A DNA stretch of 38,727 nucleotides from a virus, in UHGV virus genome UHGV-2005300; one strand, written 5' to 3'. Below are positions 1 through 15,248 of this stretch, in pieces. The notes under the pieces were generated by a model. That model ran no database searches, had not been told where the DNA came from, and was given only the letters and a program-made list of their open reading frames with translations. A program made the translations under genes and the position numbers. Numbering within the stretch: the first letter of the stretch is position 1; each line of letters begins with the position of its first letter.

Positions 1-105
1 TGCTGAGATTTCAACCTGTTGCAGTAAAAATGAGTAGATATAGGGCAAGTGTGCTGCCAAACCCATCTTTTACGGGGCGAAGGTAGATATTGTTAGAAGG
101 GTATC

Positions 106-120
106 TGGTGTCCCCTGCAG
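106..120. repeat. attL core TGGTGTCCCCTGCAG (displaced copy of the tRNA 3' end)
   Basis: Exact 15-bp match to 38652-38666; sequence diverges immediately on both sides. Confidence 0.8.
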
Positions 121-193
121 ACATCTACTTGAGGCGGCAGGGGATTGATTGGAATGGTGTTTTTTAGATGTGAAAAATATTTTACCCGCTATT

Positions 194-394
194 TTACCCA
201 TTGGCGCGGCTTAAGAGCTTATTTTTGAATTCACAATGGTCACGATATAACCATCTTGCTCGTCCGTGGATAACTTTGGCTTTAGGCAGGTCGCCGGACT
301 TAATCCGGTCATAGATGAAGGTCTTACCGAAGCCAGTATCAGCCATGATGAATTTCAAATCAACCAGTGAATCAGGTTGTAGTTCGTGTTGCAT
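194..394 (-). CDS. AlpA-family excisionase / small DNA-binding regulator
   Basis: 66 aa; motif MADTGFGKTFIYDRIKSGDLPKAKV resembles AlpA/Xis-type helix-turn-helix; GGAGA ribosome-binding site; last gene before attL. Confidence 0.6.
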   Translation of the reverse strand: MQHELQPDSLVDLKFIMADTGFGKTFIYDRIKSGDLPKAKVIHGRARWLYRDHCEFKNKLLSRANG

Positions 395-436
395 GAGTGC
401 TATCTCCGAATATGGAATCGAACCTGCAAATCAGGT

Positions 437-460
437 AATAAAAAAACCGCATTGATGCGG
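437..460 (-). terminator. Intrinsic terminator upstream of xis
   Basis: Minus-strand RNA CCGCAUcaAUGCGG followed by U7. Confidence 0.5.
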
Positions 461-517
461 CGATGGTAGGTCTGGATATCTTGATAAATGAAAATGCCTC
501 ATCGAGTGTGAGGCGGG

Positions 518-862
518 TTAGTCCTTGCGTAGCTCGCTGATTCTTCTGTAAGTCTCTGGTGCTTTGTTTCCGTGTATCTTCATTTCAGACTTCAACAGAG
601 CAACGAGAGAATCCCATTCGTTGAGGATGCCTTTGAATGCCGGAACGCGCTTTGCAACCTTGTCGAATGAATCTCTGATTTCTGGAATCTGCTCAACAAG
701 TGCAACGCATCGCCGGAAATCGGCTGCGTCATGTGGAGCACCGAAGCTATGACCATAGATATTCTTTTTCAGTCCACATGCGATTGAGGCAAGAGTTGCG
801 CTACTGATGCCGACATCGCCAGTCGATTGCCATTTCAAAACCTTCATAGCCAAATCTGACAT
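518..862 (-). CDS. Hypothetical protein (114 aa)
   Basis: ORF-track ORF 518-889 trimmed to the ATG at 862 (MSDLAMK...), because the upstream ATG lies inside the terminator hairpin. Confidence 0.5.
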   Translation of the reverse strand: MSDLAMKVLKWQSTGDVGISSATLASIACGLKKNIYGHSFGAPHDAADFRRCVALVEQIPEIRDSFDKVAKRVPAFKGILNEWDSLVALLKSEMKIHGNKAPETYRRISELRKD

Positions 863-874
863 TTCTTGTCTACA

Positions 875-897
875 ATAAAAAACCGCCATCAGGCGGC
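875..897 (-). terminator. Intrinsic terminator
   Basis: Minus-strand hairpin CCGCC-UGAU-GGCGG followed by U6; overlaps the stop of the 55-aa gene. Confidence 0.5.
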
Positions 898-1056
898 ATG
901 GTGTTCTTTCAGTTCTTCAATTCGAATATTGGTTACGTCTGCATGCGCTATCTGCGCCCATATCATCCAGTGGTTATAGCAGTCGTTGATGTTCTCTGCT
1001 TCGATAACTCTGTTGAATGGTTCTCCATTCCATTCACCTGTGACTCGGAAGTGCAT
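889..1056 (-). CDS. Hypothetical small protein (55 aa, MHFRVTGEWNGEPF...)
   Basis: Not in the ORF track (under 60 aa); ATG with GGAG ribosome-binding site 7 nt upstream; translated by hand. Confidence 0.4.
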   Translation of the reverse strand: MHFRVTGEWNGEPFNRVIEAENINDCYNHWMIWAQIAHADVTNIRIEELKEHHAA

Positions 1057-1068
1057 TTATCATCTCCA

Positions 1069-1094
1069 TAAAACAAAACTCGCCGTAGCGAGTT
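1069..1094 (-). terminator. Intrinsic terminator
   Basis: Minus-strand hairpin AACUCGC-uacg-GCGAGUU followed by a U-rich tract. Confidence 0.45.
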
Positions 1095-1139
1095 CAGATA
1101 TAATTTCCACCAAAGGCAGTAGTTGCTTGATGCTAAGAA

Positions 1140-1568
1140 TTATTCAATATCTATTCCTGTAATATCTTTTATCTTTTTCCTTGCAAAGCCTTTTGCTAGT
1201 GATTTTGAAACACTCATAAGTGTACTAATTCCCTCATCCTTAAAGTTTGTTTTTATAGCTTGCCAGACATCCTTTTGACGTAAGTCAGCAATAAAATCAT
1301 GCCCTCTTGCTGTCAACCTCAGTGGTACTTCGATCCAACTATATCCAACACCTTCCCCTAACGCTTTGGACATTATATGACCGAACCCAGGTTTTCCATC
1401 AACCCTGACTATTAATTCGTAGTCATATAATAATCGCATATGGAAAATAAAATCTTGGTCATATCTATTAAAGCCATTATCCTCTAGTTCACTAAGCATC
1501 GTGTCAGGGCCACGAGTTTTTTCGAATGCGATAAGTAGATCTTTTAGATATTGCTGGTCTAATTTCAT
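1140..1568 (-). CDS. Hypothetical protein (142 aa), AT-rich accessory gene
   Basis: Intact ORF with GGAGG ribosome-binding site 5 nt before the ATG; GC content visibly lower than neighbours; the motif LRLTARGHDFIADLRQKDVWQ may match a small phage DUF family (uncertain). Confidence 0.65.
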   Translation of the reverse strand: MKLDQQYLKDLLIAFEKTRGPDTMLSELEDNGFNRYDQDFIFHMRLLYDYELIVRVDGKPGFGHIMSKALGEGVGYSWIEVPLRLTARGHDFIADLRQKDVWQAIKTNFKDEGISTLMSVSKSLAKGFARKKIKDITGIDIE

Positions 1569-1578
1569 TGCCGCCTCC

Positions 1579-1590
1579 GTGACATGTCAC
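1579..1590. promoter_or_regulatory. Perfect 12-bp palindrome GTGACATGTCAC, candidate operator
   Basis: Sits immediately upstream of the ribosome-binding site of the 1140-1568 gene. Confidence 0.3.
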
Positions 1591-1757
1591 AGAGATTTAT
1601 ATCATTAATTTTGTTTCGTGCCAGCCTTTGGTCACCCAGCATTGTGAGTCACCATTACACGGGCATGAATTAACAGGAACTCTCTCGCCGCACTTACCGC
1701 AACGTTTTCTGCTGATCGATTTTATACGCCAGCGCACATGTGCATCATCCTGGCGGC

Positions 1758-2213
1758 TCAGTAACGCGATGTACTCACCAAACTCGCAAGGCGAATGCCT
1801 GAAGCGGCGCGTGGCTCAGTTACGATCCAGCATTTCAATTTCCTGAGCATCAAGTACAAGCTCCAGCTTACGCATACCGGATGATGCTTGCTTGGCTCTC
1901 TGATCGGCTTTGCGCTCTGCTGATGATTTAGCCATTCTGCTTTTCCTGCATTAGGAGAAAGACAATCATGGCGGCGCGGATACTTCCGGTATCTTTTTAC
2001 GCGATATTCCCCATCCAGAGCACATACAAGAAGAGATCCATCAACAGGAGTGAGTGATGAATCGACCACCAGCAATGCACCCTGCAATATTCCCTCACGA
2101 TGATGGCTACCAGCTGCCCTCAAGAAGTAGGTCGCTGAAGGATGTCTAATTATCTGCTGATCAAGAGAAATACGGCTCTCAGCATAATCCGCCGCAGGAG
2201 AAGGGAAGCCCAT
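1758..2213 (-). CDS. UmuD'-like S24-fold protein (HumD-like, no cleavable N-terminal arm), divergent C-terminus
   Basis: Starts M-GFPSPAADYAESRISLDQQIIRHPSATYF, closely matching E. coli UmuD from its Cys24/Gly25 cleavage site; the reading frame after VKRY no longer resembles UmuD. Confidence 0.6.
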   Translation of the reverse strand: MGFPSPAADYAESRISLDQQIIRHPSATYFLRAAGSHHREGILQGALLVVDSSLTPVDGSLLVCALDGEYRVKRYRKYPRRHDCLSPNAGKAEWLNHQQSAKPIREPSKHHPVCVSWSLYLMLRKLKCWIVTEPRAASGIRLASLVSTSRY

Positions 2214-2231
2214 AATACTCGCCTCTTAATG

Positions 2232-2274
2232 CTGTGTATATATACAGTATATGTTGAAGCTATATATTTTTGAA
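2232..2274 (-). promoter_or_regulatory. SOS promoter: LexA box CTGTGTATATATACAG overlapping -10 TATACT, with -35 TTCAAA
   Basis: CTGT-N8-ACAG consensus at 2232-2247, 19 bp upstream of the UmuD'-like ATG; 17-bp spacer between -35 and -10 (read on the minus strand). Confidence 0.7.
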
Positions 2275-2544
2275 CTCTATCTCTTAAAAAAGATGTTAAT
2301 AAGATGCTAACTATTGAAAGGCATAAATATATACTATTCCAACAAACGTTATTTTTAACAAATTTTTTCTCTCCGTTGACTTTTGCGAAAGCCTTGTCTG
2401 GCCTAAATTGCGCGGAAGCTACTTTTTCCTTCCTGAGTTATCCACAGAGTTATGCACTTGCATGTATAACCTATACACACTATCTTAATTCGCAAGACAT
2501 TGATGTTGCGGTATTGAAGGTTCATTGGGTTAAAAATAGACATT

Positions 2545-2575
2545 AAAAAGCCCAGTTGACTAGGCTGGGCTTTTT
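2545..2575. terminator. Bidirectional intrinsic terminator
   Basis: AAAAAGCCCAG-ttgactag-GCTGGGCTTTTT, with an A-run on one side and a T-run on the other. Confidence 0.55.
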
Positions 2576-2612
2576 AAAAGGAAACAGAGTTTGCGGCTCT
2601 GTTCCTGAGCCA

Positions 2613-2801
2613 TAAGTATCTGGCGACTGAATTAAGATTAACCGAATGTACTGGATTCATCAAGAAACGTTGAGTGGTCATACCAGGTAATAATGACCAT
2701 TTACTAAACATCGTTGTTCTCAAAGAAGATTTAAGTCCAGGTTTTTGGTGACTCTAAAACCTTACCTTAACTCGAAATCGTGCCGTAAGTATCTGGCGAC
2801 T
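2613..2801. repeat. Direct repeats TAAGTATCTGGCGACT (2613-2628, 2786-2801), part of a degenerate tandem duplication
   Basis: Two 16-bp copies; the 2771-2790 segment also resembles the 5' end of the small ORF at 2876. Confidence 0.5.
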
Positions 2802-2875
2802 ACAGATATTGCAACTGCAAAGGCAAGCCCAAAGGTATTTGCAGCTAGGCGCGATAAAACTAAGTGAGGCCTGTT

Positions 2876-2959
2876 ATGGTTAACTTACTGTTCAAAATCG
2901 TGCCGCCGATGTTCGCGATTATCAAAGCGATCATTGAGTACGTAAACCAGCGTCCATAA
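2876..2959 (+). CDS. Small hydrophobic peptide (27 aa, MVNLLFKIVPPMFAIIKAIIEYVNQRP)
   Basis: GAGG ribosome-binding site 6 nt upstream; followed by a GC-rich 8-bp stem hairpin at 2973-2997; opposite strand to the surrounding operon; under the ORF-track length cutoff. Confidence 0.35.
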   Translation: MVNLLFKIVPPMFAIIKAIIEYVNQRP

Positions 2960-3014
2960 CGCTAGTTGCTACAGGCCCCATCAAGAGCATGGGGCCTCTT
3001 TATCGTACTATTGC

Positions 3015-3680
3015 TTATTTTTTACGGACTGAGTTGTTCACTGCTCTGGCAATCTTCTCCCGCAATTGCTGCGTTCCGTGGTACTGAACCGCAATATCCC
3101 TCAACTCGTTCACCAGTTCTCGAATCTGGTGATCTTTAAGCTCATTATTTGGGTGATTGGTAACAACTCTGGTTAATTCACCCTTGTCTTTTGCTCTTAC
3201 GTATGCAGCTCTTGTGCATTCGACCCATGTATTACCGCCTACATTAACTTCGTAGATTAGGCTGGACTTATCTGTCAATTCGGAACAAATACGGGCCGTG
3301 GTCTGGCAACTAGAGCATTCGCAGTTATCGCGGAAACCGTGGTCTACTGGCTTCGGTTTCACATCATCAACTTTTTCTACCCTATTGGAATTTAAATACT
3401 TCGAAGCCTTGCTATGCCAATCGCTGGTTTTAGGATCTTGTCCATCCATCAAACGCCAGGCTTCAGCGATTAACTCATAACTAGTGACTGTAGCTTCCTG
3501 CGCATCACCAATAAGTCGTGTAATCTCTCTTTCAAGCCGACCGCCTAGCTCTGTTTTAGTGCAATGTTCTGACCAATCGCCAGCCTCAAGCAGCGCGAGA
3601 ATGCTTAAAATATCGTCCAATAGAACGGTAGTATTATCGACTTCCTTCTGAAACTCACCGGCTACTGATTTATGCATCAT
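3015..3680 (-). CDS. Hypothetical early protein (221 aa)
   Basis: Long intact ORF coupled (ATGA) to the upstream gene; contains a cysteine cluster DNCECSSCQTTARIC; no family recognised by eye. Confidence 0.7.
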   Translation of the reverse strand: MMHKSVAGEFQKEVDNTTVLLDDILSILALLEAGDWSEHCTKTELGGRLEREITRLIGDAQEATVTSYELIAEAWRLMDGQDPKTSDWHSKASKYLNSNRVEKVDDVKPKPVDHGFRDNCECSSCQTTARICSELTDKSSLIYEVNVGGNTWVECTRAAYVRAKDKGELTRVVTNHPNNELKDHQIRELVNELRDIAVQYHGTQQLREKIARAVNNSVRKK

Positions 3681-3898
3681 TCGTCATCCTCATCCGAGTC
3701 ATCCTCATCACAGGATGAGAGTAGTGGGTTAGTCATTCGCCCTACTTGAGTGGCGTAGCCACGCCGACAGAGATTGCGCAGCACACTGTATATTTCGAAC
3801 ATCTCGGTTCGTTCATCGCCAACATCAAGCTCAGATGCTATAGCGTGGCATTCAGTCGCGAGAGCCGATATTTTCTGAAATAACTCTGCTTTATTCAC
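3677..3898 (-). CDS. Hypothetical acidic small protein (73 aa, GTG start)
   Basis: Trimmed from ORF 3677-4075; proposed GTG start overlaps the stop of the upstream gene with GGAG 7 nt upstream; acidic C-terminal tail. Confidence 0.4.
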   Translation of the reverse strand: MNKAELFQKISALATECHAIASELDVGDERTEMFEIYSVLRNLCRRGYATQVGRMTNPLLSSCDEDDSDEDDE

Positions 3899-4187
3899 TC
3901 TTCGACTCCTGTGGCGGTTCTGGTAGTGGCATCCAGTGAGTTGCTTGCTCAATAATGAGTTGCTCTTCGCTTTTCTCCAGTTCAGCAATGCGCTTACTCC
4001 CATCCGAGATAACACCTTCGTAATACTCACGCTGCTCGTTGAGTTTTGATTCAAGTTCACCGAACTTACGGACAAGATATTCAGCGTTTGTTTCGTTAAC
4101 CTTTAAATCTCGTGGGATGCATTTACCTTTCAGAAATCCATCCATCTCAATTAGTGACATTTGTTTCATTTCTTCCCACTCCGCCAC
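3891..4187 (-). CDS. Hypothetical coiled-coil protein (98 aa)
   Basis: ORF-track ORF with protein-like charged/helical composition. Confidence 0.6.
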
Positions 4188-4348
4188 ATCGCATTCAGAT
4201 ATTTGTTTTGATTTACTGATGGAAAAGAATTTCTCTTAAGCAATTCCTCTCTCGATGGCATTGGCTTTACGCGTTGGCGAATAATCATTTCTGCCGGAAG
4301 AATGCCGGGATTGTATGCAAGTCCTCTCATGGTAAATTCCTCAGTCAT
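4166..4348 (-). CDS. Hypothetical small protein (60 aa)
   Basis: Internal ATG of ORF 4166-4480 that overlaps the stop of the upstream 97-aa gene. Confidence 0.35.
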
Positions 4349-4634
4349 TACTGATAGCGCCATAGCGTGAGCGGTAATTACGCAGGCGCGGGTCAATTTC
4401 AGGGAAGTGGGTATATGTGGCTTTGCGGAATGGTCGGATTGATGTCTGGTAAATTCGCTCGCGTTCTTCTTTCTCTGCAAGCCATATACAGTGGCGAAAT
4501 TCCTTTTCCTCTTTCGTTTCCTGCGGTAGAGCCATTATTCGATCGTAGTTTTTTCTGAATTTATCCAGCACCTCCGATACGGAATTGCCGGAACAGCGGC
4601 GTGGGTCATCCGCACCATACAGAGGCGCTGGCAT
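4341..4634 (-). CDS. Hypothetical early protein (97 aa), possibly Abc2-like anti-RecBCD
   Basis: Position downstream of erf and size match my recollection of P22 Abc2; not verified. Confidence 0.55.
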
Positions 4635-8060: not shown

Positions 8061-8714
8061 TTAACTAAATGTCTCTTCAGGCCACTGGCTGGCGATAACT
8101 TTCCCTACTACGGAACAGCTATCATTGCATGGAATCATTGGATATTGCGGGTTTAGTGGCTGTAGGAACACCTGACCGCTATCCCTGATCAGTTTCTTGA
8201 AGGTAAACTCGTCACCACCAAGTCTGGCTATGCAGAAATCACCTGGCTCAACAGCCTGCTCAGGGTCAACGAGAATTAACATCCCGTCAGGAAAGCTTGG
8301 CTTGGATCCTGTTGGCGCGGTCATGGAATTACCTTCAACTTCAAGCCAGAACGCACAATCACTGGCTTTTTTGGTTGTGCTGACCCATCTCTCCGCATCA
8401 CCTTTGGTAAAGGTTCTAAGCTCAGGCGAGAACATCCCGGCCTGAACATGAGAAAAAACAGGGTACTCATATTGTTTTTTAACGGGGGCAGATGAGTATT
8501 CGCCAACAGGTGAAAATGTACCGTCGTGGTTGAATGAGACGTTATCAATACCAAGGTATTTAAACACCACACCAATCTCGTCAAGAGATGGATGACGAGA
8601 TCCGCGCAACCAGTGACCAATTCCACCCTGCGTCATACCAAGCTCTTCAGCTAACTTCTCTTGAGTTATGCCGAGCTCTTTCATTCTGGATCTAGCCAGT
8701 TCATACCATTTCAT
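8061..8714 (-). CDS. cI: CI/C2-type prophage repressor (HTH plus S24 autopeptidase domain)
   Basis: C-terminal [13 protein letters not shown]...FKKL...LNPQYPMI matches P22 C2 / LexA-like domain; N-terminal [23 protein letters not shown]; start chosen for RBS spacing, alternatives at 8720 and 8762. Confidence 0.85.
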
Positions 8715-8775
8715 TTTCATACCCTTATTATTACGCTCTGTACTAAAACCATCCATGCACAAGATGTATTTTTTG

Positions 8776-14889: not shown

Positions 14890-15248
14890 ACGAATATCAG
14901 TTTGTGCTTCCATACCCGCCGTCGGTGAATACCTACTGGCGAAGACGGGGAAGCCAATACTACATCAGCGATAAAGGCCAGAAATACCGAAAAGACGTTC
15001 AGCAAATCATCCACCAACTCAAGTTAGATATTTTCACCAAATCACGACTCCGCATCAAAGTCATCGCAGACGTTCCAGACTCCCGCCGCCGCGACCTCGA
15101 TAACATCCTGAAGGGTTTACTCGACTCCCTTATCCACGCCGGATTTGCGGAAGACGACGAGCAATTCGATGACATTCGCGTAATTCGTGGTGTGAAAGTA
15201 CCAGGCGGAAGGCTTGGAATAAAAATCACCGAACTGGAGAACGTATGA
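14886..15248 (+). CDS. rusA: Holliday junction resolvase RusA
   Basis: 120 aa with the RusA signature RRRDLDN and C-terminal GGRLGIKITE. Confidence 0.9.
   Translation: MNEYQFVLPYPPSVNTYWRRRGSQYYISDKGQKYRKDVQQIIHQLKLDIFTKSRLRIKVIADVPDSRRRDLDNILKGLLDSLIHAGFAEDDEQFDDIRVIRGVKVPGGRLGIKITELENV

Follow-up and report, generated by a model that had tools for sequence, protein, structure and literature searches.

A stand-alone DUF2513 gene in a P22-like prophage and a conserved palindrome associated with its upstream neighbour

We analysed the viral genome UHGV-2005300, a stretch of 38,727 nucleotides (nt) hereafter called the window, which is a complete P22-like or lambdoid prophage integrated at tRNA-Arg, and focused on a small AT-rich gene whose ribosome-binding site abuts a perfect 12-bp palindrome. 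Comparison with related genomes supports the view that this open reading frame (ORF) is a moron of the prophage, in other words an accessory gene that is intact and moves horizontally, and a structure model identifies its predicted product as a stand-alone winged-helix protein of the DUF2513 family. The palindrome, judged from its distribution, is a conserved cis-site of the gene unit of the upstream neighbour, a homologue of phrog_536, and not a private operator of the DUF2513 gene. The wider interpretation, in which the mobile gene supplies a stand-alone DUF2513 protein for phage-host conflict and the phrog_536 cis-site gates its expression, is in our view evenly poised between right and wrong. 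The elements of the locus are as follows.

1140..1568, minus strand: DUF2513 gene, an intact 142-aa ORF (ORF call)
1574-1578, minus strand: Shine-Dalgarno (SD) sequence GGAGG, 5 nt from the ATG and abutting the palindrome
1579-1590: perfect 12-bp palindrome GTGACATGTCAC, in the 5' leader of the DUF2513 gene
1596..1624, minus strand: candidate internal promoter, -35 CTGGCA (1619-1624) and -10 TATAAA (1596-1601), recognized by eye
1597-1935, minus strand: phrog_536 homologue of 112 codons, from the family of epsilon15 gp49, phiV10 p55 and ZF40 gp22
1095..1076, minus strand: intrinsic terminator-like hairpin GAACTCGCTACGGCGAGTTT followed by the T-run TGTTTTAT, 45 nt past the DUF2513 stop

The ORF, the GGAGG and the palindrome had all been pointed out in the initial annotation, and each is present where it was placed. 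The low GC content reported there is equally real, with 0.361 in the DUF2513 gene against 0.44-0.50 in the neighbouring genes (0.472 for the whole window), and a terminator, predicted to close the DUF2513 transcription unit, does lie below the gene.

Within the window the palindrome is unexceptional: nine perfect 12-bp palindromes are found where 9.5 are expected for independent, identically distributed bases and 10.2 +/- 4.4 in Markov simulations. Its significance therefore rests only on conservation across genomes. The frequency in the window is what a functionless chance feature would give, yet across genomes this explanation is already refuted and retains virtually no probability: the 12-mer occurs 72 times in the 1.44 Mb of fetched loci, against about 0.09 occurrences expected by chance (0.06 per Mb), and its position is shared by more than 20 diverged lineages. 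Among 16 distinct orthologous upstream regions, from loci whose DUF2513 proteins are 59-77% identical, GTGACATGTCAC is invariant in 12; the remaining four comprise one region with a single mismatch, one with a degenerate copy and two that have lost the site (L112 and L133). The flanks vary freely on both sides, and the invariance of the 12-mer between them indicates that it is under selection.

The decisive result is that the palindrome is present in multiple copies in phages that have phrog_536 but lack DUF2513. There are three exact copies each in epsilon15, ZF40 and Kp4865-1, and two exact copies plus one with a single mismatch in phiV10 and in PAT1. No other 12-bp palindrome is present more than once in any of these five phages, and each of them has one copy of GTGACATGTCAC at the phrog_536 stop codon, either overlapping it or immediately after it; a tblastn search found no DUF2513 gene in any of the five. 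The fetched loci give the same picture. Each exact copy beside a DUF2513 gene sits 0-10 nt past a phrog_536 homologue or its 3' remnant, and at three loci (L007, L128 and L132) the palindrome follows phrog_536 although DUF2513 is not adjacent. Overall, the loci with phrog_536 contain 68 copies in 649 kb, compared with 4 copies in 795 kb of loci without it, and all four of the latter adjoin phrog_536 3' remnants. We assign the palindrome to the phrog_536 unit on the strength of this distribution. The repressor operator proposed in the initial annotation is thus real in so far as a conserved site exists, but it travels with the upstream gene, and its attribution to DUF2513 was mostly wrong.

The same distribution bears on the possibility that a repressor specific to the DUF2513 gene uses the palindrome as its operator, most simply through autorepression by a DUF2513 dimer. 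Such an arrangement would be in keeping with the winged-helix fold of the protein, which resembles the MarR and PadR repressors, and the MarR-type protein SlyA has a 12-bp palindromic consensus. The site also lies between a possible promoter and the SD sequence, abuts the SD sequence in every lineage that has both, and is retained where phrog_536 is degraded. Nevertheless, we regard autorepression as very improbable. The five phages without a DUF2513 gene carry the same 12-mer two to three times, and the site is positioned by the phrog_536 stop rather than the DUF2513 start, as L007, L128 and L132 illustrate. More distant DUF2513 genes, all integron cassettes included, are without the palindrome, the residues just before the DUF2513 recognition helix do not covary with its presence, and the winged-helix domain is acidic (isoelectric point, pI, 5.0). 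A pattern of D/E versus N at residue 39, considered as a sign of autoregulation, failed once all loci were tabulated. Binding sites of host factors were rejected as well: a LexA-box reading, CTGT-GACATGTC-ACGG, fails because orthologues do not preserve its outer CTGT/ACAG bases, and by eye the palindrome does not fit a CRP or sigma-54 site.

The copies of the palindrome in four genomes lie at these positions.

L143 (phiV10): 2262, 19493, 39101
L144 (epsilon15): 2142, 19517, 39612
L146: 12697, 15252, 24674
L147: 3438, 23124, 26302

Diverged Uetakevirus genomes have the palindrome at three shared places, each of them an operon end at which the copy adjoins an intrinsic terminator: one past gp49, one past terL, facing a gene on the reverse strand, and one where the structural operon ends. 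The gene content beyond each copy varies. The epsilon15 record annotates many regulatory features, and the palindrome is not among them. Across phages, the genes that follow the site include DUF2513, terS, a NinB-like gene and others. Such placement would suit an element that acts at the RNA level or at a boundary, be it a hairpin (GUGA-CAUG-UCAC) that affects termination, processing, mRNA stability or translation, or a module-boundary or recombination site. The hairpin in the window, whose stem reaches 8 bp and takes in the GGAG of the SD sequence (-12 kcal/mol, z = -2.0), agrees with this idea, whereas the hairpins of orthologues have 5-6 bp, do not consistently include the SD sequence and are as stable as those of shuffled sequences (z from -0.1 to -1.3). 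In addition, two of the ZF40 copies fall within annotated coding sequence and not near a terminator, and strict invariance without compensatory changes favours sequence-specific recognition over structure alone. We therefore consider an RNA-level or boundary function rather unlikely. At one locus (L128, 143-613) a 145-aa gene lies between the palindrome and DUF2513; judged by eye, its product looks like another small winged-helix protein, with a hydrophobic C-terminus, and it has no Pfam or PADLOC match. The slot after the palindrome may collect such small genes.

The initial annotation had suspected a match to a domain of unknown function, and a profile search bears this out: the window protein matches Pfam DUF2513 (PF10711) with 41.3 bits, above the cut-off of 29.6 (E = 2.1e-10), and residues 2-115 align with positions 1-100 of the 100-position profile. 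It also matches phrog_585 (PHROG 585), and an identical protein is already in RefSeq under the name 'DUF2513 domain-containing protein'. DUF2513 is related to the Pfam family YjcQ (PF09639). A search of 1.84 billion cluster representatives gave 1310 family clusters at E <= 0.001, nearly all of them 130-145 aa long. At the level of catalogues the gene is thus an ordinary member of a known, uncharacterised family.

An AlphaFold2 model built from a 27-sequence alignment is confident, with a predicted local distance difference test (pLDDT) score of 92.2, and consists of three helices, a four-stranded wing region and three more helices, which is the winged helix-turn-helix fold of the HTH clan. The winged-helix domain (residues ~1-97) is acidic, as mentioned above, while the C-terminal 56 residues are basic (pI 9.5) and form a helical tail. 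Together, profile and model identify the window protein as a stand-alone DUF2513 winged-helix protein, the fold being a predicted one. Sequence searches did not link it to a characterised group: it has no match in NCBIfam, none among the MarR and PadR families of Pfam at E <= 0.1, and none in the defence catalogue PADLOC at E <= 0.1, and sequence and profile searches of the PDB revealed no solved DUF2513 relative. Foldseek returned nothing from the PDB at E <= 0.001 (best E = 0.087), and against the PDB and viral models it gave generic winged-helix or uncharacterised matches only. The searchable literature contains no functional mention of DUF2513, which appears solely in a marker-gene paper on B. 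anthracis.

Evidence that bears on function comes from fused relatives. Among the best 150 of the 1310 DUF2513 clusters, approximately nine are longer than the rest, and several of these carry a defence-linked module after the DUF2513 domain.

P0127: fusion to a CAP12/Pycsar-type TIR domain
P0242: fusion to a ThsB-like TIR domain (PADLOC PDC-S66, 1.8e-57)
P0194: fusion to a PDC-S60/DUF4062-like domain
P0113, P0196 and P0205: fusions with an AbiTi-like C-terminus, matching PADLOC AbiTi and PDC-M14B
P0159 and P0240: similar to the AbiTi-like fusions, by eye

The PADLOC matches of these proteins fall in their effector domains. By BLASTP, the window protein is 38% identical to P0127 over 133 aa (7e-26) and 39% identical to P0242 over 99 aa (2e-16). 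A related arrangement may exist on the viral contig L134, on which a 307-aa gene (3076-3999) with a partial PADLOC match to a TIR effector (E = 7.5e-6) stops 1 nt before a stand-alone DUF2513 gene (4001-4417); the pair may represent the DUF2513-TIR fusions in split form. The fusions suggest that the DUF2513 domain could serve as a sensor or adaptor in conflict systems.

The distribution of DUF2513 is that of a mobile gene. The same gene, together with its upstream region, is carried by ~143 of 5426 complete E. coli genomes, and relatives with 59-77% identity occur in prophages of Enterobacter, Citrobacter, Serratia, Yersinia, Cronobacter, Pantoea and Pectobacterium. When 111 flanking proteins from 31 loci were scanned with Pfam, no recurrent partner gene was found; small terminase, lysozyme and Rz alone turned up repeatedly next to the gene, which places DUF2513 in several moron slots (between Rz and terS, in the nin region and in the xis-proximal arm). 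The clearest case is provided by ZF40, with the order gp22 (phrog_536), palindrome, gp23, gp24 and a Q-like gene, and a Yersinia prophage (L005), which shares these genes (56-78% identity) and the palindrome but has a DUF2513 gene right after the palindrome. DUF2513 is thus present or absent between the same flanking genes, a clean insertion signature. In both genomes a 22-nt block, TCGGAYTGAACACCCGATAACC, precedes the gp23-like gene (~15040-15062 in ZF40, locus L145, and ~6465-6487 in L005), and this block marks the distal edge of the insertion. The description of the window gene as a moron, already offered in the initial annotation, is supported by this presence and absence, by the several slots and cassettes, and by its distinct, AT-rich base composition and its own terminator.

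Beyond prophages, at least eight distant homologues (35-48% identical) are single-gene integron cassettes, that is, single ORFs bounded by attC sites with a GTTRRRY core, and attC/VCR-type repeats are found on both sides. Their hosts are Vibrio (four loci: L014, L019, L022 and L035), Rhodanobacter, Herminiimonas, Marinobacter and Gallionella; L008, L030, L015 and L006 are the other cassette loci, and the integrons are chromosomal and belong to unrelated bacteria. The copy in the window is not itself an integron cassette. A second clade of DUF2513 genes is found between Rz and terS (L007, L010, L013, L016-L018 and L136). It has its own conserved block ~60 nt upstream of the start, with an extended -10-like TGyTAnATT and, at several loci, the imperfect dyad GGCAYTCAC-TGAGTGCC. 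This block looks like an independent promoter or operator solution.

We hypothesize that DUF2513 has a role in phage-host conflict, which is a plausible best guess for three reasons: the same domain forms the N-terminus of single-protein candidates with TIR, TIR-like and AbiTi-like effectors; stand-alone copies have no conserved neighbours; and the gene recurs in prophage moron slots and in promoterless integron cassettes. The protein would act alone, as a small sensor or adaptor that binds a ligand or nucleic acid, and the outcome would be superinfection exclusion or defence, with a decoy function less likely. The idea of a defence or anti-defence gene, raised in the initial annotation, is plausible in this light, its support being indirect and coming from the fusions.

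Alternatively, DUF2513 could be an ordinary sequence-specific transcription factor that reprograms host or phage genes in the manner of lysogenic conversion, in which case the fusions would be incidental and unrelated to defence. The closest folds all belong to DNA-binding regulators, small winged-helix regulators are common in prophages, and the protein has no PADLOC match. We nonetheless take this to be unlikely, if far from negligible, in view of the acidic winged-helix domain and the recurrent fusion to TIR and AbiTi-like modules. Furthermore, no conserved target gene adjoins DUF2513 in any lineage, and promoterless single-gene cassettes in unrelated bacteria would be an odd setting for a regulator dependent on finding its cognate site in the recipient genome.

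The conflict hypothesis extends to the regulation of the gene, for which the upstream region has to be considered. The phrog_536 homologue, whose PHROG label is 'transcriptional regulator', has its reading frame broken at codon 40 (1816-1818) by a TGA where homologues have an invariant Cys. The N-terminal 39 aa and the C-terminal 46 aa match the two ends of phrog_536, and in tblastn an intact homologue aligns over 112 aa at 60% identity. In E. coli 13C1065T an identical stretch is entered in RefSeq as a pseudogene containing an internal stop. Among sibling E. coli prophages some have an intact allele and others the TGA, and the TGA is common to several diverged E. coli haplotypes in which the downstream frame is still open. 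The gene could thus be an old pseudogene, a two-piece gene or a case of stop-codon read-through or recoding. A toxin-antitoxin pair of phrog_536 and DUF2513 was rejected, since an intact DUF2513 gene persists at loci with a lost or broken phrog_536.

Further upstream lie the following elements.

1758..2213, minus strand: truncated HumD/UmuD'-like S24 peptidase gene, in which homology ends near 1928
2232-2247: perfect LexA box CTGTGTATATATACAG (CTGT-N8-ACAG), overlapping a promoter-like site
2274..2246, minus strand: sigma-70-like promoter TTCAAA-17-TATACT

The initial annotation had the DUF2513 gene bracketed by an SOS-regulated UmuD'-like gene, which is loosely correct. The LexA box is indeed perfect and overlaps a promoter-like site, as is characteristic of the LexA (SOS) regulon, and the unit above the DUF2513 gene can be counted in that regulon. 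The UmuD'-like gene, however, is a truncated remnant, and the phrog_536 homologue is the immediate neighbour. The HumD similarity covers positions 1-95 of 129 in the NCBIfam model and 8-89 of 116 in Pfam Peptidase_S24; beyond this similarity the ORF runs on out of frame across phrog_536, and RefSeq annotates the HumD-like gene as missing its C-terminus. The truncation coincides with a mosaic joint, near 1981-2078, between a Chlobot-like segment (873-2078) and a Cyrano-like segment (1981-3000). In an E. coli variant (L080), HumD is fused in frame to the C-terminal half of phrog_536. The LexA box and promoter of the HumD remnant now point into the phrog_536/DUF2513 unit, and their retention makes SOS-driven read-through into DUF2513 possible.

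A promoter of the DUF2513 gene itself is plausible by eye as a weak candidate only. The candidate, CTGGCA-17-TGATATAAA, has a spacer that includes TG and lies inside the 3' end of phrog_536, and its start site would fall approximately at the palindrome. Orthologues show the same geometry, with TATAAA, TATAGT or TATAAC at -10. This conservation alone is not evidence, because the same bases encode a conserved GWHETKL-I/V-stop peptide. A consensus promoter scan, which demands a T as the final -10 base, did not report the candidate. A scan of the minus strand from 2213 to 1569 revealed no convincing terminator. In orthologous loci the purine-rich SD sequence always begins 0-1 nt past the palindrome, while the spacing from SD to ATG is variable. 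In two loci, L002 (E. coli E143, ~4484-4535) and L075, IS1 replaces the palindrome and DUF2513 is otherwise intact; the IS1 end adjoins the GGAGG of the DUF2513 gene, the sequence upstream of which reads ...CAGTAAGTTGGCAGCATCACC|GGAGGCGGCAATG.

We propose that the phrog_536 protein binds the palindrome as its DNA site, and that DUF2513 was inserted just past it in such a way that the ribosome-binding site of the gene abuts the site. A bound factor would consequently be placed to block the entry of transcription or translation, and occupancy of the palindrome would gate transcription into DUF2513, or its translation. Candidate sources of transcription would be read-through from the LexA-controlled promoter of the HumD remnant (humD'), early-left transcription of the prophage, whose ORFs in this arm all lie on the strand of DUF2513, and possibly the weak internal promoter; the transcripts would end at the terminator at 1095-1076. 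Owing to the nonsense codon in phrog_536, the site in the window would be orphaned unless a co-resident phage supplies the protein.

Several points weigh against this combination of a conflict protein and a gating site. The proposed binding of the palindrome by the phrog_536 protein is deduced from co-occurrence only. That protein has no match to Pfam families or PDB sequences, its AlphaFold2 monomer model is all-helical and of low confidence (pLDDT 55), and the suggestion of a ribbon-helix-helix protein with a zinc ribbon is an impression from the sequence pattern alone. The palindrome is perfect in three lineages with a degraded phrog_536 (the window, Enterobacter and L107), a retention that a binder encoded elsewhere would explain equally well, and conversely L112 and L133 keep phrog_536 and DUF2513 but have lost the palindrome. 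On the side of the protein, the fusions are the only evidence that bears on DUF2513 function, and they would not by themselves prove a defence role for the stand-alone form, to which neither PADLOC nor NCBIfam gives a match. They constitute a minority (~9 of the best 150 clusters); since winged-helix domains occur fused to many different partners, association through fusion is a weak guide to function; and the contigs that bear the fusions, at 1.3-2.3 kb, are too short for genomic context. The TIR match on L134 is partial and has no Pfam or PDB support.

The prophage that carries the locus has the following landmarks.

38652-38726: tRNA-Arg(CCU)
37333-38526, minus strand: tyrosine integrase
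8061-8762, minus strand: CI-like repressor
34678: tailspike head-binding domain
194-394, minus strand: TorI/Xis-like gene

The DUF2513 gene is ~1.1 kb from the integrase-distal end of the prophage, and all ORFs of this arm, DUF2513 included, are on one strand. In KplE1-type prophages the integrase-distal end is usually named attR and not attL, the name used in the initial annotation. An AT-rich stretch of ~800 bp (2214-3014), also present in the 108-kb phage Cyrano, is without convincing ORFs and contains a terminator (2566..2549, minus strand). Rfam matches below threshold, to the antisense RNAs AgrB (27.6 bits) and RNAI (23.1 bits), also fall in this stretch, and no Rfam family reached threshold over 1-3200. 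The stretch, and 2542-2631 on the minus strand in particular, may encode a small RNA.

The analysis gives a family of no known function a concrete hypothesis and makes DUF2513 a cheap candidate for defence and counter-defence screens. It also establishes the palindrome as a multi-copy signature of the epsilon15 gp49/phiV10 p55/ZF40 gp22 family across unrelated temperate phages, often beside terminators, which points to a regulator-site pair at operon boundaries or at the entry to late genes. Neither the association of the palindrome with the gp49 family nor the DUF2513-effector fusions are mentioned in the searchable literature; both are modestly novel, and neither overturns current views. We further speculate that DUF2513 is the sensing module of an unrecognised minimal anti-phage family, which some bacteria combine with TIR or AbiT-like effectors by fusion or within an operon and which acts alone or with an unlinked partner in prophages and cassettes, and that its expression in enterobacterial prophages is gated by the epsilon15 gp49-family protein and GTGACATGTCAC as a regulator-site pair not described before. 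This more specific proposal is a long shot, and if it is true, the DUF2513 gene would respond to phages that carry that regulator.

Among known phage and plasmid regulators, P22 Arc and Mnt, the plasmid omega protein with its heptads and MetJ with its boxes all use short dyads. Similarly, the small basic phrog_536 protein is associated with a short, perfect dyad, copies of which are found at a few regulatory junctions in each genome. In contrast to those systems, the palindrome lies at the 3' end of phrog_536 itself and beside terminators, not in a promoter-operator region, and a ribbon-helix-helix fold could not be confirmed for phrog_536. Compared with regulators of the MarR, PadR and HxlR types, DUF2513 has no match at the level of sequence families, its winged-helix domain is acidic and its C-terminal helices differ; unlike in those systems, no cognate operator or regulated neighbour was found at the loci examined.

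Lambdoid morons in the sense of Hendrix are extra genes such as lambda bor and lom. The DUF2513 gene is like them in being AT-rich, in having its own terminator and in its insertion between otherwise adjacent genes in classic slots; it is unlike them in that its own promoter is a weak candidate, and its expression may rely on read-through. Within DUF2513/PHROG 585, the window protein is a full-length member with the length and architecture of most of the 1310 clusters. Finally, in comparison with the TIR defence candidates (ThsB-like; PDC-S35, PDC-S66 and PDC-S60; Pycsar/CBASS-type) and with lactococcal AbiTi, the window protein lacks an effector domain and has only ~45 residues of basic helices after the winged helix, but the DUF2513-bearing versions of these systems share its whole N-terminal domain.

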